DNA from: Halorarum halobium
GTDB taxonomy: Archaea > Halobacteriota > Halobacteria > Halobacteriales > Haloferacaceae
Reading direction: 5' to 3'
Assembly: GCF_032116555.1 (NCBI RefSeq)
Contig: NZ_CP134949.1
Location: forward strand, 1,860,001-1,924,000
DNA length: 64,000 nucleotides
The translations under genes and the position numbers were made by a program. The number at the start of each line of letters is the position of its first letter. The stretch's first letter is position 1. The notes beneath the pieces were generated by a model that saw only the letters and a program-made list of their open reading frames with translations, was not told where the DNA came from and made no database searches. This document shows positions 775 through 16,165 of the stretch, in pieces.

Positions 775-1674
775 TTAGTCGGACGACGTCTCGGAGGTTG
801 CTTCGACGGCGCTCCGGTACCCCTCCCGGTAGGTCGGGTACGTCAGGTCGTAGCCCAGGTCGTGCAGCTTCGCGTTCCGACAGCGTTTGCTCGTCCGAAC
901 GCGTCGTTCGGCGGCCGGCGAGAGGTCGCCCGCCTCGATTCGCTCCGCCTTCGCCCGTTTTTCCGGACGGGCCACGCGGGCTTCGTCCGCGAGCCAGTCC
1001 GCGAAGGCCCACTTGTCGGCGGGTTCGTCGTCCGCGACGAGCACGACTTCCCCGCGGGCCCCGTCAGTTTCGATGAGATGCGCGACGGCCCCGGCCGCGT
1101 CCTCGCGGTGGATCATGTTCAGGTAGCCGGCAGTTACCGGGCCCTCGAGATACCGATCGAGCCGGAAGCGGTCGGGGCCGTACAGTCCCGCGAACCGGAC
1201 GACCGTCCCGTCGATTCCGTGGTCTGCCGCCGACTCCAGTACTAGCCGCTCGGCCTCGACCAGCACCTCGGTCTTTTCGGTCGTCGGGTCCAGCGGCGTC
1301 TCCTCGTCGACCCAGTCGCCGCCGTGGTCGCCGTACACGCCGGTACTCGACGTGTAGATCACGCGCTCGGGCGGATCGGTCCGTGAGCCGTACTCCGCGA
1401 GCACGTTCGAGAGCCCCTCGACGTACACCTCCCGTGCCGCGTCCGCCCCGCGACCGCCCGTGCTCGCTGCGAACACGAGGACGTCCCCGTCGGGGAGCGA
1501 TCCGAGCGACGCCGGTTCGGTGACGTCCGCCTCGACGGCGTCCGCTCCGGCTTCGCTGACTGCAGCCAGGCCGGCCGCCGACCTTCGGACGCCCGTCACG
1601 TCGTGTCCGTCGGCCAGCAACTGTCGCGCGAGTTCGAGCCCCACGTAGCCACACCCCAGGACGACGACACGCAT
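775..1674 (-). CDS. NAD-dependent epimerase/dehydratase (extended SDR family)
   Basis: GCGYVG Rossmann motif, YTSSTGVYGD and RFAGLYGP. Confidence 0.9.
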   Translation of the reverse strand: MRVVVLGCGYVGLELARQLLADGHDVTGVRRSAAGLAAVSEAGADAVEADVTEPASLGSLPDGDVLVFAASTGGRGADAAREVYVEGLSNVLAEYGSRTDPPERVIYTSSTGVYGDHGGDWVDEETPLDPTTEKTEVLVEAERLVLESAADHGIDGTVVRFAGLYGPDRFRLDRYLEGPVTAGYLNMIHREDAAGAVAHLIETDGARGEVVLVADDEPADKWAFADWLADEARVARPEKRAKAERIEAGDLSPAAERRVRTSKRCRNAKLHDLGYDLTYPTYREGYRSAVEATSETSSD

Positions 1675-1675
1675 C

Positions 1676-2101
1676 TCAGCGCTTGCGCTCGAGGACGAGC
1701 GCGTGGATCGACGCCAGTTCGGCGAGCGTGAGTCGCGCTCTGCCTTCCAGCGCCTGCTGGACCTCCTGACCCGTGAGATCCTGGTCGATGTTCGCCGCGA
1801 TGGTGTCGACGTCGAGGATGGCGGTCACCATCTCCATCATCAGGTGATCGCGCACCTCGAACGCGAGGTCCTCGGCGGGTGCATCCTCCAGGAGCGCCAG
1901 CAGCGTCGCAGCCTCGGCGAGTCTGATATCGGCGACGTCGCCGGCCGCGACGGCTTCGACGGTCGCCTCGTCGAGCCCGGTCGCCTCGGCGGTTTCGTCG
2001 GGGCCGTACTCCGCCACGACGGCGGCCAGTTCCTCGGCGTAGGCCGCGAGGAGTTCCGCCTCGGTCGCCCCCTCGGGTTCGCCGTGGGCGTCATAGAGCA
2101 T
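1676..2101 (-). CDS. Conserved haloarchaeal hypothetical protein (DUF5791-like, possible HTH fold)
   Basis: Start re-set to ATG 2101 (MLYDAHGEP...). Acidic composition; stop lies immediately upstream of the SDR start. Confidence 0.7.
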   Translation of the reverse strand: MLYDAHGEPEGATEAELLAAYAEELAAVVAEYGPDETAEATGLDEATVEAVAAGDVADIRLAEAATLLALLEDAPAEDLAFEVRDHLMMEMVTAILDVDTIAANIDQDLTGQEVQQALEGRARLTLAELASIHALVLERKR

Positions 2102-2189: not shown

Positions 2190-5100
2190 TCACGTTGCCA
2201 CATCGCACCCGGAAACGCCGTCATCCGGGCACGGCCAACCGGCCGAGCGTTCGTCCGCGTTGCCATCGACGTCGCCGACGCCGCCCGCACCGGTCGGAAC
2301 GGCGACCAGAACGACGGTCTCGGTTCGGAACGAGACCCGCTCGTTTCGTCCGACCAGTTCGGGTTCCCCGTCGCCGTCGGCGTCGAACCGGACGGCGTCG
2401 CCGTCACGGACGTATCGGAGAACCGAGCCCGTCCCGTCGGGCGGACCCGTTCGCGCCTCGACGGTGAACCGGGGGTAGTAGCCACGGACTTCGACGCCCC
2501 AGACGTTCACGGTCGCGTACCAGTAGCCGGGGACGGGTGCGACCGGCAGTCCTGCCACCACCGGCCCGACCGTCTCGTTCGCGTAGCGATCCCGAATCCG
2601 CCGTGCGGCACGGTCCGTCCCGGCCGCGACCGCCTCCCGGACGAGTTCCCTGGCCACCCGTCGTTCCGTCCCGACGGTTTCGTTCGTGAGACTCCGATCC
2701 ACCGCCACGTTCGAGCTTTTCGCTACGTTCGTCGTGGCGATCCGGAGGCGGAGCGCGAGCCGGTCCCGTTCGTTCGGCGTCATCCGGCTCCGTCGACCGG
2801 CCGCGCGTGCGACGGCGTCCGCGTACGTCCCGTTCGTCGCCGCGACCGCTCTCGCCCCGGTCCCGGCGAACTCCGCGTCGGCTTCCCGGAGAACCATTCC
2901 CCGGTCACTGGCAGACAGACGTCCCCCGCCTTCGGCTTCGAGCACCTGATTCGCCCGCGCCCGGACCCGTGACATCGACCCGGCCACGGCCGTCGCCAGT
3001 TCGTCGCGCTGCCGACGCAACGTTCGGTTCTGCCGCGCGTCCAGCGTGCGATTGGCCCTGATGAGCGCGAGCCCGCCAGTCCGAAGCGACGCGGTCTCTC
3101 CCTCGGAAAAGACCGTCTCGGTCACCGCGTCCGCGGCGTCGCCGCTCGGAACGGTGAAGACGTTCGTGTTCCGCGCCGCGAGCGGGTAGACACGGCTCCC
3201 GTCCTCGACCCCGTCCAGTCGACTCCCCTCCACCGCGGTCACCGTGAGATAGCTGGGCTCCGTATCGGGCGTCAGGACGACCGGCCCCGCGAGCCGTCCG
3301 CCGACCGGTCGGGGCTCCGGCGTGAGGCGATCGGCCGTGACCGAGGCTACGTCGTCGAGGTTCCCGGCGAGTGGGACGCCGCTACCATCGAGCACCTGCC
3401 GGAACTCGTCGTTTCTATCGCTCACCCCACCGGCACGCTGGTCGAGTCGAGCGAGCACCCGGTCGACGTACGCCGCCCGTGCCGCGACACGTGCGTTGTC
3501 GGCGACGCCGTCGTAGCTGGATGGTGGGGAAACGAGCGACGAACGTCGCTCCCGAATCTCCGCGACGAGTGCGGCAGGGGCGTTGGCGTCGCCGGCCGCG
3601 ACCGCCTCCCGGTCGACCGTGACCGTCACGTTTCGGATCTCCTCCCGGAGGAAGGCGACGTCGGCGTACACCCACTCGTCCAGTTCGGCCGGTCGGTCCC
3701 CCGACAGCGTCACGGTCGTCGTGTCGTCGCGCCCGTGAACGGCCGACCGTGCAAGTTGCTCGATGGTGTTAGAGCCCGCAAGCCGGCCGAGTGCCTCGCC
3801 CCTGACGTCCGCGAGGTTCGGCCCGTCGAGCGCACCACCGCGGACGAACGCGGGCGACACGTTCCGGTCCGGCGCGGCGGCCGGCGGGAGATGAGCCGCC
3901 TCGATCCGGATTCTGACCTCGTGATCGTCGCGCCAGTGAACGCGGGTCGTCTCGATCCCGGCCGGAGTCCGCCAGGTTCGGACGGCCGTGTGTGTCACCT
4001 GGACGGCCACCGTCGTGTCGAGATACTCCCGTGGCGCCTTCGTGGCCGCCCCAGTTCTACCGAGCACCGTCGTCATCGAGTCCCGCCGCTCGTCGAGCAG
4101 CGTCACGTTCGGCCCCGGCGGTGACGGCGGCGGCCGGCGACCACGATCCGACGACGTGACGCGTGCCGTTCTGGTGACCTCCGCACGGTAGGCTCGGTCG
4201 ATCTGGCGACCCATCTTCGAATCGATGAACCCCGCGAAGGCGACGTCTGCGGTGTGGTTCACCCCGACGGCGATCTGAGCATCCGTCGACGAGTTCGCGG
4301 GGTGTGGAATCCCGTCGTCCGATCCGCTCCCGCCGGCCGACGCCGCCGACAGCACCGTCTCCGTCCACACGGGCCCCTGTCGTGTGGCGGGGCCGACGAG
4401 GTCGGTCATCCCGACCCTGGCGGTCGCTCCGAGGACGCCAGCGCGACCTTCCGGGTCCGCTCGGCCGAACGCCGCACGCTGTTCGCGGAGCGCCGCGGCG
4501 TTGGTCGACAGTTCCACGTGCCTGTTTGCGAGCACGTTCTGCACCGGAGCGCCGCCGTACTGTGCAAGCCCTCTCGCCTGCGCGACCGCCGTGAGTCGCC
4601 ACGTCAACTGTCTCCCGAGCCCCGGACCCTCCAGCGGACTCGCGTTCAGCCGTCGTTCGTACCGCCGTGTCCGTTCGTGCATCGCAAGCACCGGCACCGC
4701 GACCGTGACGACGTACGAGGTCCGCTCCGTCGCGACGACCCCGCCGTCGTTGCGGGCGGTCAACGTCACGTTTCGCACCGTGACGGTCATCGCGGTGCCG
4801 TCGTCGACGGACCGAACCCGGATGCGGCGTTTCGCCTCGTGGAGGTCCGCAGTCGAGTCGACTGCCGGGAGGCTCGCGGTGGCGACCGTCCGCCCGTCGT
4901 CGACCCGCGTCGTGGAGAGCGCTCGGGCGACCGACCCGTGGATCCGGAGTTTCAGGGCGTCCCGAAACGGGTCAGTTCGGTTGAGCGACCGGCCTACTGG
5001 GGTATCAGCAGGTTCGATCACCGGGTTCATCGCGGCCTCCCGTGCGGCGGCCGTCGCCGCCGCGCGGACGGCGGGTCGTGCCGAGGACTCGGCCCGCTCC

Positions 5101-5240
5101 AGCGTCTCGCTCGCCGCCGCGGTGCCGCCGACCGGCCCCGAGAGCGCGAGCGTGTTCGCGTAGGCGACGCTCCCGAGGAGGAGCACGACGCCGACCAGCG
5201 CGAACGGGACCCGCGCGCGATCGCTCGACCCAGCCGTCAT
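2190..5240 (-). CDS. Large exported pilus-associated protein with pilin-like N-terminus
   Basis: ATG 5240 overlaps the upstream stop (ATGA). N-terminus DRARVPFALVGVVLLL has a charged-then-hydrophobic pattern; DADGDG motif near the C-terminus; last gene of the pilB/pilC cluster. Confidence 0.8.
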   Translation of the reverse strand: MTAGSSDRARVPFALVGVVLLLGSVAYANTLALSGPVGGTAAASETLERAESSARPAVRAAATAAAREAAMNPVIEPADTPVGRSLNRTDPFRDALKLRIHGSVARALSTTRVDDGRTVATASLPAVDSTADLHEAKRRIRVRSVDDGTAMTVTVRNVTLTARNDGGVVATERTSYVVTVAVPVLAMHERTRRYERRLNASPLEGPGLGRQLTWRLTAVAQARGLAQYGGAPVQNVLANRHVELSTNAAALREQRAAFGRADPEGRAGVLGATARVGMTDLVGPATRQGPVWTETVLSAASAGGSGSDDGIPHPANSSTDAQIAVGVNHTADVAFAGFIDSKMGRQIDRAYRAEVTRTARVTSSDRGRRPPPSPPGPNVTLLDERRDSMTTVLGRTGAATKAPREYLDTTVAVQVTHTAVRTWRTPAGIETTRVHWRDDHEVRIRIEAAHLPPAAAPDRNVSPAFVRGGALDGPNLADVRGEALGRLAGSNTIEQLARSAVHGRDDTTTVTLSGDRPAELDEWVYADVAFLREEIRNVTVTVDREAVAAGDANAPAALVAEIRERRSSLVSPPSSYDGVADNARVAARAAYVDRVLARLDQRAGGVSDRNDEFRQVLDGSGVPLAGNLDDVASVTADRLTPEPRPVGGRLAGPVVLTPDTEPSYLTVTAVEGSRLDGVEDGSRVYPLAARNTNVFTVPSGDAADAVTETVFSEGETASLRTGGLALIRANRTLDARQNRTLRRQRDELATAVAGSMSRVRARANQVLEAEGGGRLSASDRGMVLREADAEFAGTGARAVAATNGTYADAVARAAGRRSRMTPNERDRLALRLRIATTNVAKSSNVAVDRSLTNETVGTERRVARELVREAVAAGTDRAARRIRDRYANETVGPVVAGLPVAPVPGYWYATVNVWGVEVRGYYPRFTVEARTGPPDGTGSVLRYVRDGDAVRFDADGDGEPELVGRNERVSFRTETVVLVAVPTGAGGVGDVDGNADERSAGWPCPDDGVSGCDVAT

Positions 5241-6085
5241 GGAGCCCACGTCCTGACGACGATGACGACGCGACGGGACCGCTCGATCGACGTCGCGGAT
5301 CGACCATCACTGGAACCCTCCCGACGGTCGGCATGGATCCGGTCGGCGACGGCCGGCCGGAGTCGGTCGTTCGCGGCGGCCGGACCGCCCGCTCGAAGGG
5401 CGTCGAGGGTGTCGATTCCGTAGAGCCGTCCCGCCCGACGATACCGGTGCTCGACGAGCCCCGGAAGGGGCGAGTCGTCCTGCAGAGCGAATCGCAGCTG
5501 TTCGGGCGGAAAGAGCGCCCGAACGAGAAACCCCGCGAGCCGGTCCTCCCGATCCGTCGCGCCGACGGTGTCGGTCGTCGTTCCGCCGGCGGCGGACGGC
5601 TGCACGCGGACGGGGACGGTCAATCGCGCCGCGTCTACCGCGCGGTCGCCAGGGGGTGCGGGGCCGACGGCGACCCCGCCGTGAACGTGTGACCCGGGGT
5701 ACGGTTCCCACCTCGCGTCCACGCGCGTCCGAGCCGGCAGCGAGTTCAGCACGGCGCGGTGAACCGCGCGCCGGAACCCGCCGGACGCGTTCGTCAACGA
5801 CTCACCGTCGATTCGAACGGACCGGAACGCCGCACGAGCGAGCAGTTCCGCGAGCGTCCCGTGGGCGACGCGGTCGAGTTCCCCGCTCGCGGCCGACGAC
5901 GATGCCGTGTCCCCCGACCCGGGCTGGAGGGTGTAGGAGACGTTCGCGGTGGTCACCGAGAGCGTCTCCGCCGCGGCATCGGCACGGCCCTCCGGTACCG
6001 GCGGGTCACGAGCACCGACGACCGTGAGCGCGGCCGCGCTCACGAGGAGGAGACACAGCCCCGCGTCGAGCGCTGTCGCCGTCAC
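5237..6085 (-). CDS. Pilus-cluster protein with N-terminal hydrophobic helix
   Basis: Probable GTG start at 6085 overlapping the upstream TGA (GTGA); MTATALDAGLCLLLVSAAAL...; ends IVVRTWAP. Confidence 0.7.
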   Translation of the reverse strand: MTATALDAGLCLLLVSAAALTVVGARDPPVPEGRADAAAETLSVTTANVSYTLQPGSGDTASSSAASGELDRVAHGTLAELLARAAFRSVRIDGESLTNASGGFRRAVHRAVLNSLPARTRVDARWEPYPGSHVHGGVAVGPAPPGDRAVDAARLTVPVRVQPSAAGGTTTDTVGATDREDRLAGFLVRALFPPEQLRFALQDDSPLPGLVEHRYRRAGRLYGIDTLDALRAGGPAAANDRLRPAVADRIHADRREGSSDGRSATSIERSRRVVIVVRTWAP

Positions 6086-6474
6086 GGCCACACCCCCACC
6101 TGCAACGTGGCCGATCGGACGGTTCCGGGACGGAGTCGTACGCCGACGGACGTCGAATCCGTGTCCGCGGTTCGTGGCGGTTCGGGCCCGGCCGTCCACC
6201 GGTGGTCATCGGACGTGAGCGTCACGTTCACCGAACGTCCGGACGGACCGGCCGTCGGTGCTCGTTCCACTCTCGACGGCTCCGCGATTCCGCCGGTCGT
6301 GAGGTGGTCCTCGACGCGCTCCAGCGTCGGCCCCGCGAGGTCGCGGTCGCCGTTCGGGACCGAGTCAGCGAGCACCAGCGCGTAGGCCGTCAGGCCGAAC
6401 ACGATGGCGAGTACGGCGGCCAGCGTCACCGTCGGCTCGGCCTGAGCCCTACCGGACGAGCACGAGCGTCGCAT
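6082..6474 (-). CDS. Small type IV pilin-like protein
   Basis: MRRSCSSGRA/QAEPTVTLAAVLAIVFGL fits a class III (PibD) signal peptide followed by a hydrophobic helix. Confidence 0.75.
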   Translation of the reverse strand: MRRSCSSGRAQAEPTVTLAAVLAIVFGLTAYALVLADSVPNGDRDLAGPTLERVEDHLTTGGIAEPSRVERAPTAGPSGRSVNVTLTSDDHRWTAGPEPPRTADTDSTSVGVRLRPGTVRSATLQVGVWP

Positions 6475-6919
6475 CCTCACCTCCCCAAGCGACGCGTCGA
6501 ACGATCAGTCGCTTGGCTCCCCGCCAGCCCGGCGGGTCCGTCCGCTCCCCGTCGAGCGCCCGCTCGAACGAGGCCCGGTCGGCGAACACCGCGCTCGGCT
6601 CGGACCCGGTGGCGACGGCAGCCAGCGCGCTTCCGGGTGGAGTCGGGACGACCGGACCGAACGCGAACCCTGCGTGGGCGACGCCGGCGTCCGACCGGAG
6701 CGTGAGGCCGGTGGACTCGACCATGACCGCGTCCGCGGCGAGCCGGTACTCGACGCTCGCGGGCGGGTCGTGTGCGGCGACCGAATCCACGGCGTTGGCC
6801 GCGGCGGTCGCGTCCGGCGGCGGTGCCGTCGGAAGACCGAAGGCCGTGCCGAGGACCGTCGTGGCCACGGCCGCGGTGCCGAGCCAGGCGTACCAGGCGT
6901 CCAGCGGGACGTCGAACAT
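6449..6919 (-). CDS. Pilus-cluster small membrane-anchored protein
   Basis: ATG 6919 (MFDVPLDAWYAWLGTAAVA...), preceded by a TATA-like box at the expected distance. Confidence 0.7.
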   Translation of the reverse strand: MFDVPLDAWYAWLGTAAVATTVLGTAFGLPTAPPPDATAAANAVDSVAAHDPPASVEYRLAADAVMVESTGLTLRSDAGVAHAGFAFGPVVPTPPGSALAAVATGSEPSAVFADRASFERALDGERTDPPGWRGAKRLIVRRVAWGGEDATLVLVR

Positions 6920-6927
6920 GGGGGTGC

Positions 6928-6951
6928 TGGCCGCGCTTTCGGTGATAAAGT
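6928..6951 (-). promoter_or_regulatory. Internal promoter of the pilus cluster (ACTTTATCA-N8-GCGGCCA-N8-ATG)
   Basis: TATA-like box and CCA occupy the same positions relative to the start codon as at 10546-10569 and 11549-11572. Confidence 0.55.
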
Positions 6952-8648
6952 TACAGCAGGAGGCCGGCACCGACGACGCCCGCGAGAAACGAGCCAACGG
7001 CCGTCAGCAGCGCGATCCCCGTCCGGTACGCGACGAGCCACCCGTCGAGTCCTCGCTCCAGCCCCGTGGCGAGCGACGTGAGGATGACGGCCAGCAGGAG
7101 CACGTACCAGCCGACCGCGGTCCCGACGAGATCCGGAGGTAGCATCGTGCCCGCTTGCCCCGCCGTGAGTCGAGCGTCAGCCTCCGCCAGGCGACGGGCG
7201 AGTGCCACGGTCGCACCGCCGACGAGCGGACCGAACAGCGCGGCGGTGTGTGAGAGCGTCCGCGTGACCGTGGCCAGCGCCCGCCGCCCCGTCCGTTCGT
7301 GTTCGAGGAGTTCGTCGAGCCTGTCCGCGTAGGTGCGGAGCGCATCCCCGGCCGGCCTCCCCTCGCGGGCCGCAGCGACCAGAAGCGCGACCGCGCCGCG
7401 CGAGCGGGTTCCGCCCCGAGTCGCCATCGGACCGTGCGTTCCCAGAAACGCCCTCCCGAGCCGGACGCCGAGCAGTTCACGACGGCGTGCCGCCCCCTCG
7501 AACGCCTCGCTCACGGGTCCCGACGTTATCGCTCCGGCGCGTTCCACCGCGTTCTCCACCGCAGTGCCCTCGCTGACGGCCCTCCCGACGACCGAGAGCG
7601 CGTCGGAGAGGCCGCGTTCGAGTTCACGGACCCGTCGCCGTTCCCGCACGATCGGTCGGGAGACGACGACCAGCACGGCACCGGACCCGGCCCCCACCGC
7701 GGCGATGTGACCGGCCCACCCACCGACCAGGGTCGTTCCGACGACCCATCCGACGCCGACCCCGCCGAACCCTGCGGCGACGCCGAGAACGATCCGTCGT
7801 CGCCGTTTCGCACCCGACGGGCTCACCGTCGGAGGCGGGAACGCGACGGGGCGCGCGGCCAGCAGCTTCACGCCCGCGACGGCGACGGAGCCGGGAAGCA
7901 GCACGTCGTAGCCGAGCACGAACACGGCTGGCGTGATCGGGATCCCGGCAGCCGTCGCCGCCGGGAGCGTCCCGACGAGCGCGAGCGGCAGGAGGACGCC
8001 GAACGCGTAGAGGCCGGTCACGGGCCCGTGGAGTTCGTTCGCGAACGCCTGGACGCGCTCGGAGAGCGCCCTGTCGACGGTGTCGACCGCGCGGTCGAGG
8101 ACCCGGTCGCGGCGATCCGGATCGGCCTCGGCCGCGGCTTCCAGGTTCGAAACCGCCCGTGCCAGCGCGGGGAACCACGGTTCCCACTCCCGGCCGAACC
8201 CCTGGAGTCCCGTCCGCGGCGTCCCGACGCTGCGTCCGACCCAGTCTCGGAGGCTCCTCGCGAGCAGCCCGTCCCCGGTCCGCGCCGTGAACCGCGCGGC
8301 GCGCTCGGGAACCGGCGTCAACCGAAGCTGCAACGCCAGCAGTCCCACCAGTTCGACCGCGTCGCCGAGCGCGCGGGTCCGTCTGAACGTGGCGAGCACC
8401 CGCGGCAGCCTCGGGACGGCAGAGACGAGTCCGAGTCCGCACGCCGCCCCGAGCAGGACGGCCGGGAGGACGCCGCCGATCAGGGTGGCGGCTCCCGCCA
8501 CCCCGAGGCCAGCCCCGGTCGAAAGCACGTAGCCGGCTTCGAGGACCTGTTCCGCGTCGCGGTCGACGCCAAGGAGCCCGAGCGACTGCCGAAACTCTCG
8601 TCCCGGGCGGACGGAAATCGGCCACAGGCCCGCGAGTTCGCTCAGCAT
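6951..8648 (-). CDS. pilC2: Type IV pilus / type II secretion membrane platform protein (PilC/TadC-like)
   Basis: Multi-pass membrane protein with two T2SS-F-like halves, overlapping the end of the secretion ATPase. The suffix 2 is inferred from adjacency to cetZ2. Confidence 0.75.
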   Translation of the reverse strand: MLSELAGLWPISVRPGREFRQSLGLLGVDRDAEQVLEAGYVLSTGAGLGVAGAATLIGGVLPAVLLGAACGLGLVSAVPRLPRVLATFRRTRALGDAVELVGLLALQLRLTPVPERAARFTARTGDGLLARSLRDWVGRSVGTPRTGLQGFGREWEPWFPALARAVSNLEAAAEADPDRRDRVLDRAVDTVDRALSERVQAFANELHGPVTGLYAFGVLLPLALVGTLPAATAAGIPITPAVFVLGYDVLLPGSVAVAGVKLLAARPVAFPPPTVSPSGAKRRRRIVLGVAAGFGGVGVGWVVGTTLVGGWAGHIAAVGAGSGAVLVVVSRPIVRERRRVRELERGLSDALSVVGRAVSEGTAVENAVERAGAITSGPVSEAFEGAARRRELLGVRLGRAFLGTHGPMATRGGTRSRGAVALLVAAAREGRPAGDALRTYADRLDELLEHERTGRRALATVTRTLSHTAALFGPLVGGATVALARRLAEADARLTAGQAGTMLPPDLVGTAVGWYVLLLAVILTSLATGLERGLDGWLVAYRTGIALLTAVGSFLAGVVGAGLLL

Positions 8649-10537
8649 TTCGACGGGCTGGCGGCCTCGGATCGCTCCGTCGTCCCCGATCGGACGGTCG
8701 CGCTCGAGGCGATTCGACCGTCCGCCACGAGGTCGGAGACGACGTCCGCCCGCGAGTCGACCGCCGCCAGAACGTCACCGTACGACTCCGCGGGCGCGGC
8801 GATCGAGTTCACCGCGCGGCTCCCTCCCCGGTCGATGATGCCGGTGGGGGTCGAGCCACTGCCGTCCCGTTCGAACAGCGGGACGAACCTCGTTCCGTCG
8901 GTCGTGCGACGGAGTTCCTCGATCGCGTTCAGTCGCCTGTCCGGGCCGAGCGAGACGACCAGATCCGTCGCGGCGAACGACGATTCGGGGACCCCCAGGT
9001 CGGAGACGACGCGTTCGCGGACCGCGGCCCCGTCGGAGCCGTGAATGGTTCCAAGCACCGCGTCGGCCGCCGCGCCGACGCGCATGGCCTCGTACAGCGC
9101 CGTCGCCTCCGTCCCGCGAACCTCGCCCACGACGAGTGCGCCATCGCCGAGGCGGAGCGCGCTCCTGACGGCTTCCGTCGGTGTGAGCGCGGCGTCGGCG
9201 TCGGTCCCGACGCGGAGCGCTTGCACGTCGCGATCGGCGTCCCGGAGCGACGCGACGGGGAGTTCCGGTGTGTCCTCCACGAGAACCGTCCGGACGGCCG
9301 CCGGAAGCTCCCAGAGCAACGCGCCGAGCAGCGTGGTCTTGCCAGCACCTCTCGGTCCCGCAATCAGTCCCGTGACGCCGCGTTCGACCGCCAGCGAGAG
9401 GAACCCGGCCGCCCGAGGCGGAAGCGACCCGGCCGCGACGAGTCGCGCGAGCGTCCAGGACTCGTCGTCCTGCCGGCGGAAGGCGAACGCCGGTCCGTCG
9501 CTGGCCGGGTCGGTGACGCCGGCGACGCGGACGCCGGCGAGCGACGCGTCCACGATCGGCGAGGCGCGCGAGAACGCCCGGCCGCCGGCGGCGCGGACCC
9601 GCGAGGCGAACGCCGCGACGTCCTCGCGGGAGAATCGGACGTTCGTGCGGACTGGATCGCCGTCCACGACGGCCCGAACTGGCGTCTTCGCCGCGGGGGC
9701 GGTCAGGAAGGCGTCCGAGAGTCGCGGGTCGGCGAACAGATCGTCGAGTAACCCGTTTCCCCGCGTGTGCTTCTCGAGGATCGCGGCGAGCAGCTCGACC
9801 GGATCGTCCTCGCCCGCGACCCGCCGCACCGCGCGTCCCGCCGCCCGCTCGCCGCCGCGGACGGTCCCGTCCGCGAGGGCGGTCGCCGCGGCGGCGAGCG
9901 TATCGAACGCCCCGGGATCGAGCGTCTCGCTCGGTGGCGTGAGCCGGTACTCGTCGCGCGGCCCGTCGGTCTCGTACCGTCTGACCACGGCCCCAGTGTC
10001 GAGTTCGTGCGCGTTCAGGAGTACCGCATCGTCCGGGGGGCCGGCAGTGGTCCGCCCCCGTGCGACGGCCGGGGCCACCGTCGGCGCGAGGACTTCGTCG
10101 TACTCGGCCACGCCCTCCGCACACGCGGCGAGGCCGGTTTCGGCAGCGACCCTGGCGACCGGCCCGGCGCGTCCGGTCGCAGTTCGTGCGGCGGCGAGCG
10201 GGTCCGTCCGGGCGCGAACGGCGAGCTCCGCGTCGTGGTGGGCGACCCGTTCGACGAACCGGCCGGCGGCGACCAGGAACGCCGACGCTCGGCCGTCGTA
10301 CGTCCGTTCGATTCCCCCGGCGGTCGTCCGGACCGGTTTCGCGTCACGTTCCGAGAGCGCGTCGACGACCGTGGCCCGACAGCCCGGGGACCCGGCCAGA
10401 ACGCCGTCCTCGGGACAGTCGTCGCTGTCGACGTCGAGGCTCACTCGAGCGTCGCTCGAACCGGCCGGGGTCCGGACGGACGGTCGACACTGGCAGGTCC
10501 GTGCGTCGCCCGGTCGGAGTCGGTCGAGGAGTCGCAT
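8642..10537 (-). CDS. pilB2: Type IV pilus assembly ATPase (PilB/TadA/VirB11 family)
   Basis: Walker A GPRGAGKTT, Asp box VEDTPEL, Walker B LVVGEVRG, His box GTIHG; Cys-rich N-terminus. Confidence 0.9.
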   Translation of the reverse strand: MRLLDRLRPGDARTCQCRPSVRTPAGSSDARVSLDVDSDDCPEDGVLAGSPGCRATVVDALSERDAKPVRTTAGGIERTYDGRASAFLVAAGRFVERVAHHDAELAVRARTDPLAAARTATGRAGPVARVAAETGLAACAEGVAEYDEVLAPTVAPAVARGRTTAGPPDDAVLLNAHELDTGAVVRRYETDGPRDEYRLTPPSETLDPGAFDTLAAAATALADGTVRGGERAAGRAVRRVAGEDDPVELLAAILEKHTRGNGLLDDLFADPRLSDAFLTAPAAKTPVRAVVDGDPVRTNVRFSREDVAAFASRVRAAGGRAFSRASPIVDASLAGVRVAGVTDPASDGPAFAFRRQDDESWTLARLVAAGSLPPRAAGFLSLAVERGVTGLIAGPRGAGKTTLLGALLWELPAAVRTVLVEDTPELPVASLRDADRDVQALRVGTDADAALTPTEAVRSALRLGDGALVVGEVRGTEATALYEAMRVGAAADAVLGTIHGSDGAAVRERVVSDLGVPESSFAATDLVVSLGPDRRLNAIEELRRTTDGTRFVPLFERDGSGSTPTGIIDRGGSRAVNSIAAPAESYGDVLAAVDSRADVVSDLVADGRIASSATVRSGTTERSEAASPSKC

Positions 10538-11016
10538 GCGGCCGTTGGTTCCGTTCCGGTATTTGAACTCTCGGGGGTCGTCGCCGCGACGACCGGGACG
10601 CCCTCAAGCCTCGTGAACCGCAGTTCGACGCGGTGGGCACCGGCTTCGACGAACCGGATCGGACCGTCCGGGAGCCGGAGACCGGCATCGAGCCACCGCG
10701 TCACTACCGAGCCGCTTCCGACGCCGTACCTGAGCGCAGTCCGGCCGTCCGCGAGCGTGCAGAGTTCGACGAAGCGAACCGGGGCCGCCGTGAGCGATGC
10801 ACGCGGCAGCGAGAGCTCCACGACCTCGCGTCCGCCCGGGAGCGTCGCGCCGACGGGATCGGACTCGGATCGCAGCTCGGCGGCCGCGCGGTCGAGCCGT
10901 TCCCCGAACCGGTCGAGGGTGCTCGCGGTCCGCTCCGCGCCCGCCGCCTGTATCGGTGGGAGCGAGACGCCGAGGAGCGCGACGGCCAGGACCGTCGCGA
11001 GCACGTACCGGATCAC
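10441..11016 (-). CDS. Pilus-cluster protein with N-terminal signal/anchor helix
   Basis: MIRYVLATVLAVALLGVSLP; GTGA overlap with the upstream gene; low-complexity tail overlaps the pilB start by 97 nt. Confidence 0.7.
   Translation of the reverse strand: MIRYVLATVLAVALLGVSLPPIQAAGAERTASTLDRFGERLDRAAAELRSESDPVGATLPGGREVVELSLPRASLTAAPVRFVELCTLADGRTALRYGVGSGSVVTRWLDAGLRLPDGPIRFVEAGAHRVELRFTRLEGVPVVAATTPESSNTGTEPTAACDSSTDSDRATHGPASVDRPSGPRPVRATLE
10546..10569 (-). promoter_or_regulatory. pilB promoter (AGTTCAAAT-N8-GGAACCA-N8-ATG)
   Basis: Same two boxes and spacing as upstream of the 11540 start; consistent with a leaderless transcript. Confidence 0.65.
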
Positions 11017-11540
11017 AGCGCGTCCCTGAGCCGTGCCGCGATGCCGTCCGAACGCGTCGGCTCCGTACCCTCCTCCGGAGCGTCTTGGTCGGGACTCCGG
11101 GTCGGAGTTCGGGCCGAACCGTCGGCGTCGCCCCGGAGAGTCTCCTCGTGCGTCGGCGGACGGTCAGTCCGCCGAGGTTCCGCCTCGCAGTCGAGGGTGG
11201 AAGCGACCCGCTCCGCGGTCGCCAGCGCCGCGTCGGCGCGCCGCTCGACGTCCCTGTTCACGGCGCGGACGCCGCCGACGTACCCGCGGAGCGCCTGCGT
11301 CGCGGCCTCGATCTCGCCGACCCGTTCGTCCAGGTCGGCGAGCCCGTCCTCGACCGCAGTCACCCGGTCGGCGAGTCGTGCGCGTTCGGTGGCGGTGTCG
11401 GCCTGGAGCGGGTCGTCGCGCTCGCCGAGGGCGCGCTCGACCGCGGCGAGTCGAGCCGAGAGGGAGTCGCGGTCGACTCCCTCGCCGGCGGATGGACGTC
11501 GGTCGCTCCGCTTTGCCGCCTCGTCCGGTGGTTCGGTCAC
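11013..11540 (-). CDS. Coiled-coil protein, first gene of the pilus cluster
   Basis: GTG 11540 supported by the promoter motif; heptads LADRVTAVEDGLADLDERVGEIEAATQALRGYVG. Confidence 0.7.
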   Translation of the reverse strand: MTEPPDEAAKRSDRRPSAGEGVDRDSLSARLAAVERALGERDDPLQADTATERARLADRVTAVEDGLADLDERVGEIEAATQALRGYVGGVRAVNRDVERRADAALATAERVASTLDCEAEPRRTDRPPTHEETLRGDADGSARTPTRSPDQDAPEEGTEPTRSDGIAARLRDAL

Positions 11541-11548
11541 AGGGCGGG

Positions 11549-11572
11549 TGGTTCCCCTCTCGCATTTGAACT
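11549..11572 (-). promoter_or_regulatory. Pilus-operon promoter (AGTTCAAAT-N8-GGAACCA-N8-GTG), back-to-back with the cetZ2 promoter
   Basis: Exact repeat of the boxes at 10546-10569. A second TATA-like GATTCAAGC at 11581-11589 faces cetZ2. Confidence 0.65.
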
Positions 11573-11612
11573 TGTGGGAAGATTCAAGCGGGCGGGCTGA
11601 CTGGCTTGTGTC

Positions 11613-12701
11613 ATGAAGACGGTCCTCATCGGGGTCGGACAGGCCGGCGGGAAGGTGGCGTCGGCGCTCGTCGACTTCGACCACGAAATGGGGTTCGACT
11701 CTGTGATCGGCGCACTGGGCGTCAACACGGCGAAGGCGGACCTCCAGTCCCTCCAGTTCGACACCGTGCTCATCGGGCAAGACCGCGTCCGCGGGCACGG
11801 CGTCGGCGGCGACAACGAGCTCGGTGCCGAAGTGATGCAGAGCGACGTGCGCGAGGTCATGGGCGAACTGGACGGCCGCATCACGGCGGAGGCCGAGGCG
11901 ATCATGGTCGTCGCCGGCCTCGGCGGCGGAACCGGGTCGGGCGGCGCGCCCGTCCTCACGAAGCGACTGAAGCGGGTGTACGACGTGCCGGTGTACGGGC
12001 TCGGCGTCCTACCGGGACGTGGCGAGGGCGCGATGTACCAGGTGAACGCCGGGCGGTCGCTCAAGACGCTCGCTCGCGAGGCCGACTCGGTGCTGCTCAT
12101 CGACAACGACGCCTGGCACAGCTCCGGCGAGAGCATGGAGGAGGGGTTCGACTCCATCAACGCGAACATCGCTCGCCGGGTCGGCCTGCTGCTCGCGGCC
12201 GGCGAGGCGGTCGAGGGGGTCGGCGAGAGCGTCGTCGACACCAGCGAGGTGATCAACACGCTCCGCTCGGGTGGCATCTCGGCGCTCGGCTACGCGAGCG
12301 CCGAGGCGAGCGAGAGCGCGGACGAGAACATCAACGTCGTGACGAGCGTGACGCGGAACGCGCTCCTCACCGGGACGAGCCTCCCGAACGCGGTCGACGC
12401 CGATTCGGCGCTGCTCGTGGTCGCCGGCAACCCCGAGCACATCTCACGGAAGGGCGTCGAACGCGCCCGAAAGTGGCTCGAGGAGGAGACCGGGAGCATG
12501 CAGGTCCGCGGCGGCGACTTCCCGCTCGAATCCGAACGGCTCGCGTCGCTGGTGCTGCTCGGCGGCGTCGAGCGGAGCGGGCGCGTCCAGGAGTTCATGG
12601 AGCGTGCCGCCGCGGCCGTCGAGGAGGCGGAAGCGCGGGAGGAAGAGGCGAACCCCGAGGAGAAGCTGTTCCAGAACGAGGACCTGGACAGCCTCATCTG
12701 A
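11613..12701 (+). CDS. cetZ2: Tubulin/FtsZ-family cytoskeletal protein CetZ2
   Basis: GVGQAGGK, tubulin signature GGGTGSG, T7-loop DTSEVINTL; closely resembles haloarchaeal CetZ2 as I recall it. Confidence 0.9.
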   Translation: MKTVLIGVGQAGGKVASALVDFDHEMGFDSVIGALGVNTAKADLQSLQFDTVLIGQDRVRGHGVGGDNELGAEVMQSDVREVMGELDGRITAEAEAIMVVAGLGGGTGSGGAPVLTKRLKRVYDVPVYGLGVLPGRGEGAMYQVNAGRSLKTLAREADSVLLIDNDAWHSSGESMEEGFDSINANIARRVGLLLAAGEAVEGVGESVVDTSEVINTLRSGGISALGYASAEASESADENINVVTSVTRNALLTGTSLPNAVDADSALLVVAGNPEHISRKGVERARKWLEEETGSMQVRGGDFPLESERLASLVLLGGVERSGRVQEFMERAAAAVEEAEAREEEANPEEKLFQNEDLDSLI

Positions 12702-12803: not shown

Positions 12804-13691
12804 ATGACTCGCGTCCCTGCCTGGCTCACCTTCCGGCGGTACGCAGCGTTCGTCACCGGCATGACGCTCACGCTCGTCATGCTCGGCATCTACACGGCCG
12901 CGTCCGGTTCCGGGCTCGCGTGCGCCCAGCAGTGGCCGCTGTGTGACGGCGGCGTCCTCCCCCGGACGATCCCCTCGTTCATCGAGTGGTTCCACCGGCT
13001 CTGGGCGATGATCACGGGGTTCCTCATCCTCGGCGTCGCCGCCTGGGCGTGGCGCGCCGGGCAGTCCCCGCGGACGAGGTGGGCCGCGACGGTCGCGACC
13101 GTGCTCACGCCGATGCAGGCCGTTCTCGGCGCCGTCACGGTGACGTTCAACGGCCGGCTTCCGGGCGGCTACTCCGCGCCGGTCCACGCGGCGCACTTTC
13201 TCGTCGGGTTCGCCATCTTCGTCGGCCTGGCCGACGCGACGCTGACGGCGTACGAGGGACGCTACCGCCGGAACAGGGTCGAGCGGACGCGGCTCGCCCT
13301 GGACGTCGCGCTCGGCGGCCTGCTCGCCGGCACCGTGCTCTCTCGGCTCCCGCCGCTGCTCGCGTACGATCCGTGGGCGCAGGCGCTGTTCTACGGAGTG
13401 TCGCTCGCGGCGTTCGGGGCGCTGCTGGGCGCGGTCAGGTGGCTCGGCGGTCGGGATGGTGGCGGACCGGGACGGGCGGGCCGGGGCCGGCTCCGATGGG
13501 CCGTCGGCGTCGCCGCGGGGCTCCTCTTCGTGGCGATGGTGCTCGGGCGTGACCTCGTCTTCTACACGGCGACCGTGGGGCTCGTGAACGCGGCCGTCGT
13601 CGTCGCGGCGCTCGCGCTCGTCGCCGGCGCACGGTGGCGGCTTCGGGACGACGGCGCGGCGTCCGATTCGACCGCCAGCGTCTCTGATTGA
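12804..13691 (+). CDS. ctaA: Heme A synthase (COX15/CtaA family)
   Basis: GLACAQQWPLC cysteine loop, EWFHR motif, multi-pass membrane protein. Confidence 0.8.
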   Translation: MTRVPAWLTFRRYAAFVTGMTLTLVMLGIYTAASGSGLACAQQWPLCDGGVLPRTIPSFIEWFHRLWAMITGFLILGVAAWAWRAGQSPRTRWAATVATVLTPMQAVLGAVTVTFNGRLPGGYSAPVHAAHFLVGFAIFVGLADATLTAYEGRYRRNRVERTRLALDVALGGLLAGTVLSRLPPLLAYDPWAQALFYGVSLAAFGALLGAVRWLGGRDGGGPGRAGRGRLRWAVGVAAGLLFVAMVLGRDLVFYTATVGLVNAAVVVAALALVAGARWRLRDDGAASDSTASVSD

Positions 13692-13748
13692 CACGTCCGC
13701 CGGGGATCGACGGGACCACTACCGGGGACGCCGGTGACCGAAGCTGCC

Positions 13749-13755
13749 TTATATA
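13749..13755 (+). promoter_or_regulatory. TATA box of the amino acid ABC operon
   Basis: TTATATA about 24 nt upstream of ATG 13779. Confidence 0.6.
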
Positions 13756-13778
13756 CTCCCGAACAATCAGTTCACGTC

Positions 13779-14594
13779 ATGCAGAGACGAACTTACCTGA
13801 AGTCGACCGGAGCCGCGGCCGCGGGCCTCTCGATGGCCGGCTGTCTCGGGTTCGGCGGCGGCGGTTCCGAAACGGTCACGATCGGCTCCGACATCCCGTA
13901 CCGACCGTTCGAGTACGAGACGACCGAGGGGGAGCTGACCGGCTTCGACGTCGACATCGCGGAGGCGATCTTCGTGGGCCAGCTCGACATGGAGTACGAG
14001 TTCATCCAGACCTCCTTCGACACGATCATCCCGTCGCTGAACAACGGGAACTTCCGCGTCGTCATGTCCGCGATGACGATCAACGACGAGCGGGCCGAAC
14101 AGGTCGACTTCTCGGACCCGTACTTCACCGCCTACCAGACCATCGTCGTCCGGCAGGACTCCGACATCAGTTCGACCGAGGACATGCAGGGCGTCCGCGT
14201 GGGCGTCCAGCGCGGGACGACCGGCGAGGGCGCGGCCGTGGAGCTCCAGGAGGAACTGGACGGCGACCTCGAGATCAACCGCTACGACCAGATTCCCGAC
14301 GCGTTCAGCGCGCTGTTGAACGGGCAGGTCGACGCCGTCATCAACGACAACACCGTCAGCGCGGAGTTCGTCAACGGCGAGGGCGAGGGCGAGGTTCGCT
14401 TCGTCGAGGGCGAGGGCGCGGCCGCGGAATCGGGCGAGAACGCCCCGCCGTACCTCACGCTCACCGTCGAGAACTACGGGATCGCCTTCCGGCAGGACGA
14501 CGACGAGTTCCGCGAGGAGGTCAACGGCGCGCTCGCCGCGATCCGCGAGGACGGGACGTACGACGAGATCTACAGCGAGTACTTCGCCGGGTAA
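13779..14594 (+). CDS. Polar amino acid ABC transporter substrate-binding lipoprotein (GlnH-like)
   Basis: Tat motif QRRTYLK, lipobox MAGC, PYRPFE, GFDVDIA, SAMTINDERAEQVDFSDPY. Confidence 0.92.
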   Translation: MQRRTYLKSTGAAAAGLSMAGCLGFGGGGSETVTIGSDIPYRPFEYETTEGELTGFDVDIAEAIFVGQLDMEYEFIQTSFDTIIPSLNNGNFRVVMSAMTINDERAEQVDFSDPYFTAYQTIVVRQDSDISSTEDMQGVRVGVQRGTTGEGAAVELQEELDGDLEINRYDQIPDAFSALLNGQVDAVINDNTVSAEFVNGEGEGEVRFVEGEGAAAESGENAPPYLTLTVENYGIAFRQDDDEFREEVNGALAAIREDGTYDEIYSEYFAG

Positions 14595-14600
14595 CCGTCG

Positions 14601-15437
14601 ATGGCGACCGACACCGAGCGCGCGGCCGAGCGGGACCGCGGCTTCCTCGAACAGCTGAACGACCGAACCTTCCGTCGGCTCGGCGTCGTCGGGACGACGG
14701 TGTTCGCGCTCGGCGTCGCGGCGTTCATCGGCTACATCCTGCTCGTGCGGGTCGACTACTCGCTCCTCGTCGAGATCATCTACCCGCAGTTCACGTTCGC
14801 GTTCCTCCGGGTGATCGGGCTCGTCGTGATCTCCAGCGTGCTCTCGGTCATCGCGGGGGTGCTGGTCGGGCTGGCCCGGGTGTCGCGGACGGGCGTGACG
14901 AGTTCGATCGCCAAGAGCTACATCGAGTTCTTCCGCGGGACGCCGCTGCTGTTCCAGCTGTTCGTCATCTACCTCGGCGTGCCACAGCTGTGGCCGCCCG
15001 GACAGTTCCCCGTCGACCAGTTCAACTACTACGCCGCGGTCATCGGCCTGACGCTGAACCACGCGGCCTACGTCGGCGAGGCGATCCGGGGCGGCATTGA
15101 GTCGATCCCCGACGGGCAGATGGAGGCCGCGCGCTCGCTCGGCATGTCGTACATCCAGTCGATGCGGGAGGTCGTCCTCCCGCAGGCGTGGCGAAACTCG
15201 CTGGCCGCCATCGGCAACGACCAGGTGATCCTCGTGAAGGACACCTCGCTGCTGACGGTTCTCGCCATCCCGGAACTGCTGAGCGCGTTTCGCCAGATCA
15301 ACTCCGCGACGTTCGACGCGTGGACGCCCATCGTGCTCGTCGCGGTCGCGTACCTCATGATCACCATCCCGCTCGGGAAGGTGATCCGGACCCTGGAGGA
15401 GCGTGCCGATCCGGCAGCCGCCGGGGGTGATCACTGA
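14601..15437 (+). CDS. Polar amino acid ABC transporter permease (GlnP/HisM-like)
   Basis: FRGTPLL, EAIRGG, GQMEAARSLGM (EAA loop), LVKDTSL. Confidence 0.92.
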   Translation: MATDTERAAERDRGFLEQLNDRTFRRLGVVGTTVFALGVAAFIGYILLVRVDYSLLVEIIYPQFTFAFLRVIGLVVISSVLSVIAGVLVGLARVSRTGVTSSIAKSYIEFFRGTPLLFQLFVIYLGVPQLWPPGQFPVDQFNYYAAVIGLTLNHAAYVGEAIRGGIESIPDGQMEAARSLGMSYIQSMREVVLPQAWRNSLAAIGNDQVILVKDTSLLTVLAIPELLSAFRQINSATFDAWTPIVLVAVAYLMITIPLGKVIRTLEERADPAAAGGDH

Positions 15438-16165
15438 TGTCGCTGCTCGAGTTCGAGCAGGTGAACAAGTACTTCGGCGACGCGCACGTCCTGAAGGACA
15501 TCGACCTCGAGGTGGACGAACGGGAGGTCGCCGTCGTCATCGGCCCCTCCGGCTCCGGGAAATCGACGCTGCTCCGGTGTACGAACCGCCTCGAGGAGAT
15601 CCAGTCGGGCGAGATTCGGCTGGACGGCGTCCCGTTGACCGACCCGGACGCGGACATCAACCGCCTCCGGCAACGCATCGGGATGGTGTTCCAGTCGTTC
15701 AACCTGTTCCCGCACAAGACGGCCCTGGAGAACGTCGCGCTCGCGCCGATCAAGGTTCGGGGGCTCCGGGAGGGGGAGGCCCACGAACGGGCCAACCAGC
15801 TTCTCGAGCGCGTCGGGCTGGGGAACCAGACGGCGTCGTACCCGTCACAGCTCTCGGGCGGCCAGCAGCAGCGGGTCGCCATCGCCCGCGCGCTGGCGAT
15901 GGACCCCGAGGTGATGCTGTTCGACGAGGTGACGAGCGCGCTCGACCCGGAACTCGTCGGCGAGGTGCTGGAGGTGATGCGGGATCTCGCGGACGAGGGC
16001 ATGACGATGATGGTCGTCACCCACGAGATGGGCTTCGCCCGCGAGGTGGCCGACAGCATCACGCTGATGGCCGAGGGCGAGATCGTCGAGCGCACGCCGC
16101 CCGAGCAGTTCTTCGACGAGCCGACGACCGACCGCGGTCGGCAGTTCCTCTCGAAGCTGTTGTAG
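15437..16165 (+). CDS. Polar amino acid ABC transporter ATPase (GlnQ-like)
   Basis: GPSGSGKST, LSGGQQQR, LFDEVTSALDPE, VTHEMGFA. Confidence 0.95.
   Translation: MSLLEFEQVNKYFGDAHVLKDIDLEVDEREVAVVIGPSGSGKSTLLRCTNRLEEIQSGEIRLDGVPLTDPDADINRLRQRIGMVFQSFNLFPHKTALENVALAPIKVRGLREGEAHERANQLLERVGLGNQTASYPSQLSGGQQQRVAIARALAMDPEVMLFDEVTSALDPELVGEVLEVMRDLADEGMTMMVVTHEMGFAREVADSITLMAEGEIVERTPPEQFFDEPTTDRGRQFLSKLL

Follow-up and report, generated by a model that had tools for sequence, protein, structure and literature searches.

A promoter motif shared with candidate DNA-uptake genes suggests a competence role for the haloarchaeal pilB2/C2 pilus beside cetZ2

This study concerns the type IV pilus cluster that stands head-to-head with the tubulin-like gene cetZ2 in a 64,000-nt stretch of the Halorarum halobium genome (hereafter the window; NZ_CP134949.1, positions 1,860,001-1,924,000, forward strand), whose numbering gives all coordinates below unless another locus is named. 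Eight minus-strand genes, running from 11540 to 2190, encode DUF7310, DUF7311, a PilB-type ATPase, PilC, DUF7283, DUF7285, DUF7284 and DUF7286, and together they are the published pilB2/C2 type IV filament system (subclade or subsystem 4F). From the promoters that these genes share with dispersed DNA-handling genes, we favour, with a modest degree of confidence, the reading that the cluster encodes a competence pilus within a haloarchaeal DNA-uptake regulon. The competence programme would normally be silent and is likely controlled separately from cetZ2, which is a neighbour that probably lies outside the pilus regulon. Recombination among haloarchaea is extensive in nature, yet their laboratory transformation relies on spheroplasts and polyethylene glycol; for the archaeal DNA importer, there is so far no more than a candidate. 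The reading offers a testable function for an orphan pilus found in 112/150 sampled Halobacteria genomes, a short list of candidate genes (pilB2-pilC2, HVO_2754, HVO_1019, HVO_0224/0225), and a ready reporter, the motif itself, for finding the inducing condition in Haloferax volcanii. The promoter motif, its conserved target set, the DNA-uptake hypothesis and a multi-copy structured RNA family exposed by the same signature are put forward here as new, as neither motif, regulon nor RNA family turned up in the literature searched (most subscription papers lay outside that search).

The regulon is recognized by a signature that precedes DUF7283, pilB and the coiled-coil gene encoding DUF7310, namely a TATA-like box and, at a fixed distance after it, RRCCA, which ends 7-10 nt ahead of the start codon. 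A scoring matrix was trained on the regions upstream of DUF7283 in 72 loci of relatives, with only the TATA box as alignment anchor; this genome was excluded and 8/81 loci were dropped for want of a callable start. Among these regions, C occupies position +19 in 67/72 and position +20 in 55/72, and A occupies position +21 in 64/72, compared with a CCA background of 1.9% among the 899 TATA-anchored starts of this genome. The signature was recovered at pilus promoters outside the training set (49/81 for the coiled-coil gene and 69/86 for pilB); it precedes five internal pilus genes in only 0-4 of 77-86 loci, and cetZ2 in 1/43. Within H. halobium, 12/899 starts score at least 8, with the three pilus promoters ranking 3, 7 and 10, and genome-wide 32/7463 TATA sites pass, whereas 200 column permutations gave 4.15 on average and at most 15. 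The initial annotation described the eight genes as an operon joined by mostly overlapping stop and start codons; the junctions are as described (4-nt overlaps at three of them, longer overlaps of 7, 26 and 97 nt, and a single gap of 31 nt), but three separate promoter-like sites, before the coiled-coil gene, pilB and DUF7283, take the place of a single shared promoter.

The twelve top-scoring starts head a TctA/DUF112 permease gene (the best score of all), DUF7857-MinD/ParA, a second MinD/ParA gene, a NucS_N-Zn ribbon gene, a Cas4-like gene, RPA with its partner gene, the pilin DUF7382 and the three pilus genes, while at two sites no credible protein follows. The motif is also present at genes for an exported PLD-family protein with two HKD motifs and a Rad3/XPD helicase, where the TATA box is weaker or the start comes later. 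The same targets recur across relatives. For example, a pattern search of four genomes from four families (113/119 hits fetched) returned TctA, the pilin, the Cas4-like gene and NucS_N each in 4/4, and PLD, DUF7857, MinD and DUF7283 each in 3/4, and the motif lies upstream of 43/49 TctA orthologues (29 best loci plus 20 hand-picked across families), 28/30 Cas4-like orthologues and 23/26 pilin orthologues. In a panel of 43 genomes chosen for completeness and spread, the stand-alone DUF7382 pilin (leader RA|IEGLP) was found in 20/20 pilB2-positive and 6/23 pilB2-negative genomes, and in three genomes of family f5 it lies approximately 3 kb upstream of pilB2. The Cas4-like gene is present in 42/43 genomes. 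The TctA-like permease (PF01970, 4.5e-56; 407 aa) occurs in 149/150 genomes, as a single match in nearly all of them, and its family extends to 28/36 non-halobacterial genomes of the phylum; no solved relative of the protein was found by sequence.

Several of these genes have further features. The DUF7382 pilin gene lies head-to-head with a gene for a HerA/DUF87-like ATPase (L122:1596-3191), and in several relatives the motif is present in both directions. The Cas4-like protein (L120:1619-2293, +) retains its cysteines, but the usual catalytic residues of the PD-(D/E)XK motif are apparently replaced, so that its role may be to bind DNA and not to cleave it. Close to mcm, a conserved block (L117:1062-6036) comprises a DUF7855-DUF7857-MinD/ParA operon convergent with a transcription factor B (TFB) paralogue, together with DUF7858 and a further ParA-like gene, and carries the motif at two or three promoters. 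This TFB paralogue (39/43 genomes at 1e-75; its own upstream region passes the motif in 6/30) was considered as the regulator and set aside as not sufficient: in csmR and cirA mutants of H. volcanii it is induced 6- to 10-fold, yet expression of the TctA-like gene does not increase. The CsmR motif, TATCA(N4)TGATA, was likewise rejected as the regulon motif, being a different sequence. In one other genome (G060), a TnpB-like gene (L291:1530-2753, +) has a top-scoring motif (13.6/15.8) directly upstream, perhaps through insertion into a regulon promoter.

The target set resembles the transformation machinery of methanogens. According to the parts of the source available to us, transformation screens in Methanococcus maripaludis identified a type IV pilus, the TctA-like MMJJ_13030, its OB-fold partner MMJJ_13020, the MinD/ParA protein MMJJ_11080 and a thermonuclease, and deletion of the TctA-like gene eliminated transformation, in M. 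maripaludis as well as in Methanoculleus thermophilus (PMC10133366). The two systems have in common a type IV pilus and a short TctA-like permease without ComEC, and may also share MinD/ParA proteins and an exported nuclease, for which two motif-bearing MinD/ParA genes and the PLD-family protein are the candidates here. They differ in that the methanogen pilus is Epd, of clade 1, whereas the haloarchaeal one is 4F; in that the nuclease is a thermonuclease there and a PLD-family candidate here; and in that the components are linked by genetics there and by a shared promoter motif here. ComEC (PF03772) and DprA (PF02481) were not found in this genome, which is 99.9% complete (controls positive in 10 and 11 of 14), and without ComEC another importer would be needed. 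It is this match of the motif-bearing set to four methanogen transformation classes, together with single-stranded-DNA and helicase functions and without ComEC or DprA, that leads us to regard the cluster as the putative capture pilus of a silent competence programme. Outside the Halobacteria, the neighbours of TctA-like genes are mostly housekeeping genes; of 88 listed proteins 37 were scanned, and these included one SNase+LTD protein and two of ParA type. In one such genome, the TctA-like gene is immediately preceded, on its own strand, by a gene for a lamin-tail-domain thermonuclease (L417:204-1373, +).

Bacterial competence regulons offer a second parallel. In those governed by CRP-S/Sxy, the ComX/SigX cin-box or ComK, dispersed genes for pilus, importer, ssDNA-binding and processing proteins likewise stand under one promoter signature and are silent in ordinary growth; the haloarchaeal set differs in that ComEC and DprA were not found and in that its motif follows an archaeal TATA box and precedes a leaderless start. 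The successive steps of capture, trimming, import and hand-over to recombination, as we infer them, would run as follows. A factor, possibly an alternative TFB, would switch on the motif-bearing promoters, and PilB2 and PilC2 would next assemble the DUF7382 pilin into a short filament, tipped by DUF7285/7284/7286 and positioned by the MinD/ParA proteins. Bound DNA would be trimmed by the exported PLD-family protein and imported by the TctA-like permease, and the RPA, Rad3/XPD helicase, Cas4-like and NucS-like proteins would receive it for recombination or recycling. cetZ2 would be a neighbour inherited by synteny, with its own promoter.

Several observations weigh against this reading. DprA was not found and no radA-like gene was recognized among the top motif sites (an unannotated list, read by eye), and no membrane OB-fold partner was seen beside TctA, where the neighbours, also read by eye, are a ribosomal-type protein and an elongation-factor-like gene (the rest of the genome was not searched). 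DNA uptake by the pilB2/C2 pilus is a proposal, and the haloarchaeal TctA-like protein is a presumed MMJJ_13030 orthologue on the grounds of family, length and single copy. The PLD protein could be a lipid enzyme, its top Atlas names including cardiolipin synthase. The motif is a predicted promoter element, and part of the pattern matches are background: with one mismatch allowed, hits and reversed-pattern controls in four genomes number 32/19, 23/17, 31/10 and 33/5. The RPA promoter passes the motif in only 10/30 relatives. Where pilB2 was not found, the motif is kept at the TctA-like gene in 9/11 genomes and at the Cas4-like gene in 14/16, and as both genes are near-universal, the regulon is not pilus-specific. 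The induction of Halobacterium pilB2 in surface-attached cells fits adhesion as well, as far as the sections consulted go (PMC4292770). Finally, co-expression of the motif genes in H. volcanii (counts from PMC13286277, supplement 9; gene identities checked in supplement 7) is partial, and growth phase drives most of the correlations. In the cirA mutant, expression increases sixfold for pilB2 and over fourfold for HVO_0750 but not for the TctA-like and coiled-coil genes; PLD and pilB2 give a rho of -0.25, and rpa3 is constitutively high.

It is conceivable, though unlikely, that the regulon is real and the role of the pilus lies in contact between cells and in intercellular DNA exchange or repair, comparable in function to the Ups/Ced system of Sulfolobus or to haloarchaeal mating, rather than in the uptake of free DNA. 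A pilus, a membrane protein, a HerA-like ATPase gene beside the pilin, a helicase and RPA would suit contact-dependent transfer, and pilB2 is 8.5-fold induced in surface-attached Halobacterium cells according to the portion of that report available to us (PMC4292770). However, the TctA-like family is tied genetically to the uptake of naked plasmid DNA in two methanogens, as described in the accessible part of PMC10133366, and an exported nuclease-like protein would be better suited to free DNA. The Ups pili and Ced system of Sulfolobus provide a model for such exchange, in that a clade-4 pilus is co-induced with DNA-transfer and repair genes, but Ced acts between aggregated cells and the haloarchaeal regulon has a TctA-like protein at its centre.

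Two further alternatives to a competence pilus appear improbable. In the first, DNA would be imported as a source of phosphate or nucleotides, with transformation as a by-product. H. volcanii is said to grow on DNA as a phosphate source, the nuclease-like and permease genes are almost universal, and DprA was not found; against this, the RPA, helicase, Cas4-like and NucS-like proteins point to the handling of intact strands, and no phosphate-transport or salvage gene was recognized among the top motif sites. In the second, to which we give equally little credence, the pilus would serve adhesion or biofilm formation, and the motif would mark a general stress or growth-phase promoter class that includes DNA genes by chance. 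Imperfect co-expression and induction in adherent cells favour this view, and DUF7286-type proteins have been termed adhesin- or S-layer-like in the sections seen of two papers (PMC4858521, PMC13705601), but the motif is too rare among the scored starts of this genome to sit easily with a general class, and its targets overlap methanogen transformation gene classes in five genomes.

The initial annotation had instead proposed a machine positioned by CetZ2 and co-regulated with it from the shared intergenic region, with the coiled-coil protein as a bridge between CetZ2 and PilB, and had held that poorly conserved linkage or uncorrelated expression would count against this idea; both were found in part. 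Among the 150 sampled Halobacteria genomes (8 candidates per genome scored for PilB; related genomes are not independent), cetZ2 is divergent and within 2.5 kb of pilB2 in 68, that is, in 68 of the 103 genomes that have both genes. In the remaining genomes with both, the two are far apart on one contig (19) or on different contigs (16, at least one probably an assembly break); 26 genomes have only cetZ2, 9 only pilB2 and 12 neither. In a panel of 86 loci (80 fetched pilB2 loci, five named loci and the window), the coiled-coil gene accompanies the pilus genes in all 44 linked loci and in 37 of the 42 unlinked ones, including 8/8 fetched loci from genomes without a CetZ2-level match; five of these genomes, when rechecked, yielded only more distant tubulin-family genes. 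This behaviour argues against an adaptor between CetZ2 and PilB; a complex prediction of coiled-coil residues 22-118 with PilB 10-612 scored 0.00, giving no answer for or against.

Expression in H. volcanii is likewise at odds with co-regulation. From low through mid to stationary phase, counts are 56/68/85 for cetZ2, 0.73/0.74/0.33 for pilB2, which is therefore nearly silent in standard culture, and 2.8/2.3/1.7 for the coiled-coil gene, and over 12 non-independent conditions cetZ2 gives a rho of -0.64 with pilB2 and 0.03 with the coiled-coil gene. Inducible competence genes are often silent in ordinary culture. The cetZ2 and pilus TATA boxes lie back to back, 11-25 nt apart in 20/36 loci, and the coiled-coil transcript dips along with cetZ2 in two early-phase mutants, which makes local interference between these two genes plausible. 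cetZ2 has an upstream consensus of its own, GGGAAnGTTsAA (35 loci). Thus, neither a shared promoter, nor obligate linkage, nor correlated expression was found, and the tempting story of a cytoskeleton-pilus module is weakened: the head-to-head arrangement, the close TATA boxes, the shared dips and the cetZ genes that also adjoin pilus loci in Thermococcales (in the part consulted of PMC9856176) speak for it, yet it is very improbable given genes that are separable in both directions, promoters of different types, anticorrelated expression and a CetZ2 paper whose accessible text gave 0 matches for pilB2, type IV or pili (PMC13556191). DNA uptake, one of the functions that the initial annotation had listed, is now the favoured one, without the positioning by CetZ2.

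The regulon motif also heads a family of dispersed non-coding elements. A profile finds 23 hits in this genome (20 at E<0.01), none within a called open reading frame and 18/23 facing a convergent gene. In copies from six genomes, RTG-NNN-stop stands at the element head, at the regulon mRNA start position, in 27/28 aligned copies, a count inflated by an extraction pattern that favoured such heads. A covarying GCGGC/GCCGC helix of five pairs is 97.9% paired, with both-side changes in 4/5 pairs, and it is crossed by a variable stem whose two sides pair more extensively when taken from the same copy than when taken from different ones (mean 6.6 vs 4.6 bp), which predicts a pseudoknot; a second helix (columns 36-39 with 89-92) had no both-side change and is not claimed. 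With a covariance model, the element was detected in 22/43 genomes, with up to 39 copies, and in 21/26 DUF7382 pilin-positive versus 1/17 pilin-negative genomes, and the promoter motif is present at 11/12 fetched hits of this model, two of which were already in the training set; a search of Rfam with 9 copies gave 0 matches. We therefore regard the element as a predicted pseudoknotted RNA with a start-codon-stop 5' end, with a DNA-level mobile hairpin element as a possible alternative. The fuller proposal, that one silent natural-competence switch (TATA-plus-RRCCA) serves the pilB2/C2 pilus for DNA capture and the TctA-like importer and also fires these RNAs, which may reprogramme translation or handle incoming DNA, is offered tentatively.

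The locus itself is well documented. The parts consulted of four papers (Makarova 2016, PMC4858521; Brown and Duggin 2023, PMC9856176; Losensky 2015, pil-2, PMC4292770; PLoS Genet 2026, PMC13705601) already describe the gene cluster and its link to cetZ2, as well as the coiled-coil gene and, as a prediction, a stand-alone major pilin, so that the cetZ2-pilB2/C2 linkage mentioned in the initial annotation is indeed on record (PMC9856176, PMC4858521). As far as the consulted sections go, function is given as unknown or a CetZ scaffold role is suggested (PMC9856176, PMC4858521, PMC13705601, PMC4292770, PMC6491452, PMC13556191), in agreement with the initial annotation, which saw beside cetZ2 a type IV filament system without a defined function. 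The gene-content features of 4F were found here (an ATPase with a Cys-rich N-terminus, a coiled-coil gene, a large surface protein, a neighbouring cetZ gene and a stand-alone pilin), and the published locus agrees in genes, order and the cetZ2/arCOG04674/epimerase neighbourhood; in the passages seen, the published accounts differ in offering no function, shared promoter motif or tie to the TctA-like permease and DNA-handling genes. The assignment was made from gene content and 44-64% identity to the pilB2 group versus approximately 30% to other ATPases. PilB2 is filed under 4C in the text seen of PMC6491452, and the Makarova text, where consulted, ties coiled-coil and ftsZ-like genes to 4F (PMC4858521).

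The genome encodes the parts expected of an archaeal type IV filament system. PilB2 has the Walker A, Asp box, Walker B and His box of PilB/VirB11-type ATPases, and C15, C17, C41, C53, Walker A 394-401, E421-D422, E472 and H499 are invariant in 41 sequences; PilC follows pilB in 86/86 loci, and a prepilin peptidase is encoded elsewhere in the genome (PF06847 over the cut-off; C1:36774). The initial annotation, which listed three pilin-like proteins and a large exported one, needs a correction in that only DUF7285 and DUF7286 have a class III-type leader in this genome, as they do in 67/78 and 71/77 loci, respectively (DUF7286 with an atypical +1 Arg). DUF7283 and DUF7311 lack one, a leader-like motif being hardly ever seen in either (1/81 and 6/80), and the leader of DUF7284 is lost here. 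In family f1, to which this genome belongs, DUF7284 has a class III leader in 0/26 loci, as opposed to 44/51 elsewhere, and its start falls roughly where the mature N-terminus is expected: the whole lineage has gone over to a leaderless pilin. Residues 33-182 of the DUF7286 model resemble the pseudopilins GspK (Z 6.5, root-mean-square deviation 3.1, 88 aligned) and EpsI (Z 6.4, 3.9, 78 aligned), a moderate-Z likeness that suits a tip component and lies below the level that proves a fold. Foldseek gave no match for the DUF7286 model at E<=0.001, and a wide structure search returned mostly generic helical bundles at residues 716-876. The DUF7283 model had no clear fold match (best Z 4.3, with GspI only at Z 3.4), and DUF7284 returned only DUF relatives in the Atlas.

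Variation among relatives was also observed. One genome (G067; second copy, L114) has two pilB2-type clusters, and in three genomes of one genus (L106, L109, L110) DUF7283 and the coiled-coil gene have been relocated to the cluster end. Several genomes (G022, G027, G032, G035, G076, G094; L044, L059, L082) have split pilB2 matches or clusters without pilin genes, and some pilB2-negative genomes retain pilin and RNA copies, which together suggests repeated recent loss of the pilus.

The features of the locus are collected in Table 1. As initially annotated, the locus has eight pilus genes with a divergent cetZ2, separated from them by 72 nt (from the cetZ2 ATG at 11613 to the coiled-coil GTG at 11540), and this gap is the shortest among 36 measurable linked loci (range 72-194, median 85.5; 7 further linked loci without a clear start were left unmeasured).

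Table 1. Genes and promoter sites of the cetZ2-pilB2/C2 locus, in window coordinates, with three example RNA elements in the coordinates of their own loci.
Feature	Position	Strand	Remarks
cetZ2 tubulin-like GTPase, 362 aa	11613..12701	+	Pfam CetZ_C 9.6e-68, Tubulin 4.7e-31; orthologues 59-82% identical
cetZ2 TATA-like box	11583..11604	+	TATA score 5.5, downstream score -10.3; downstream part is no regulon-motif match
Regulon promoter motif 1 (TATA...RRCCA), before coiled-coil gene	11549..11570	-	Scores 11.2/12.1; rank 7/899
DUF7310 cytoplasmic coiled-coil protein, 175 aa	11013..11540	-	Pfam 4.4e-25; GTG start; without hydrophobic segment; 81/86 loci; presumably arCOG07564
DUF7311, N-terminally anchored, without class III leader	10441..11016	-	Pfam 1.7e-36
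Regulon promoter motif 2, before pilB, within DUF7311 3' tail	10546..10567	-	Scores 11.2/9.7; rank 10/899
PilB2 assembly ATPase, 631 aa, N-terminal four-cysteine domain	8642..10537	-	T2SSE, E 1.7e-17
PilC2/TadC-like membrane platform	6951..8648	-	T2SSF, E 4.1e-5 (24 bits vs cut-off 25.2, just under); 7 hydrophobic segments; 86/86 loci
Regulon promoter motif 3, pilC-DUF7283 gap	6928..6949	-	Scores 6.4/14.3; rank 3/899
DUF7283, leaderless membrane-anchored alpha/beta protein	6449..6919	-	Pfam 7e-46; model pLDDT 92
DUF7285 minor pilin, class III leader (RA|QAEP)	6082..6474	-	Pfam 3.7e-34
DUF7284 minor pilin, class III leader lost	5237..6085	-	Pfam 3.1e-78
DUF7286 giant pilin-like protein, 1016 aa, predicted tip component	2190..5240	-	Class III-like leader R[GA]|R[VI]PF; model pLDDT 83
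DUF5791 (likely arCOG04674), conserved cetZ2 neighbour	1676..2101	-	Pfam 3.9e-41; neighbourhood in PMC9856176 (part consulted)
NAD-dependent epimerase (likely arCOG03095), conserved cetZ2 neighbour	775..1674	-	Pfam Epimerase 6.5e-17; PMC9856176 (part consulted)
Example predicted RNA elements, 80-130 nt	L128:170-248; L130:121-199; L131:172-250	+; -; +	This genome, ~20 dispersed copies

Beyond cetZ2, the window continues, as read by eye, with a CtaA/Cox15-like membrane protein without a Pfam match (12804-13691, -), a polar amino-acid ABC transporter operon (13734-16165, +) and the replication factor C large subunit (17329-18867, +).

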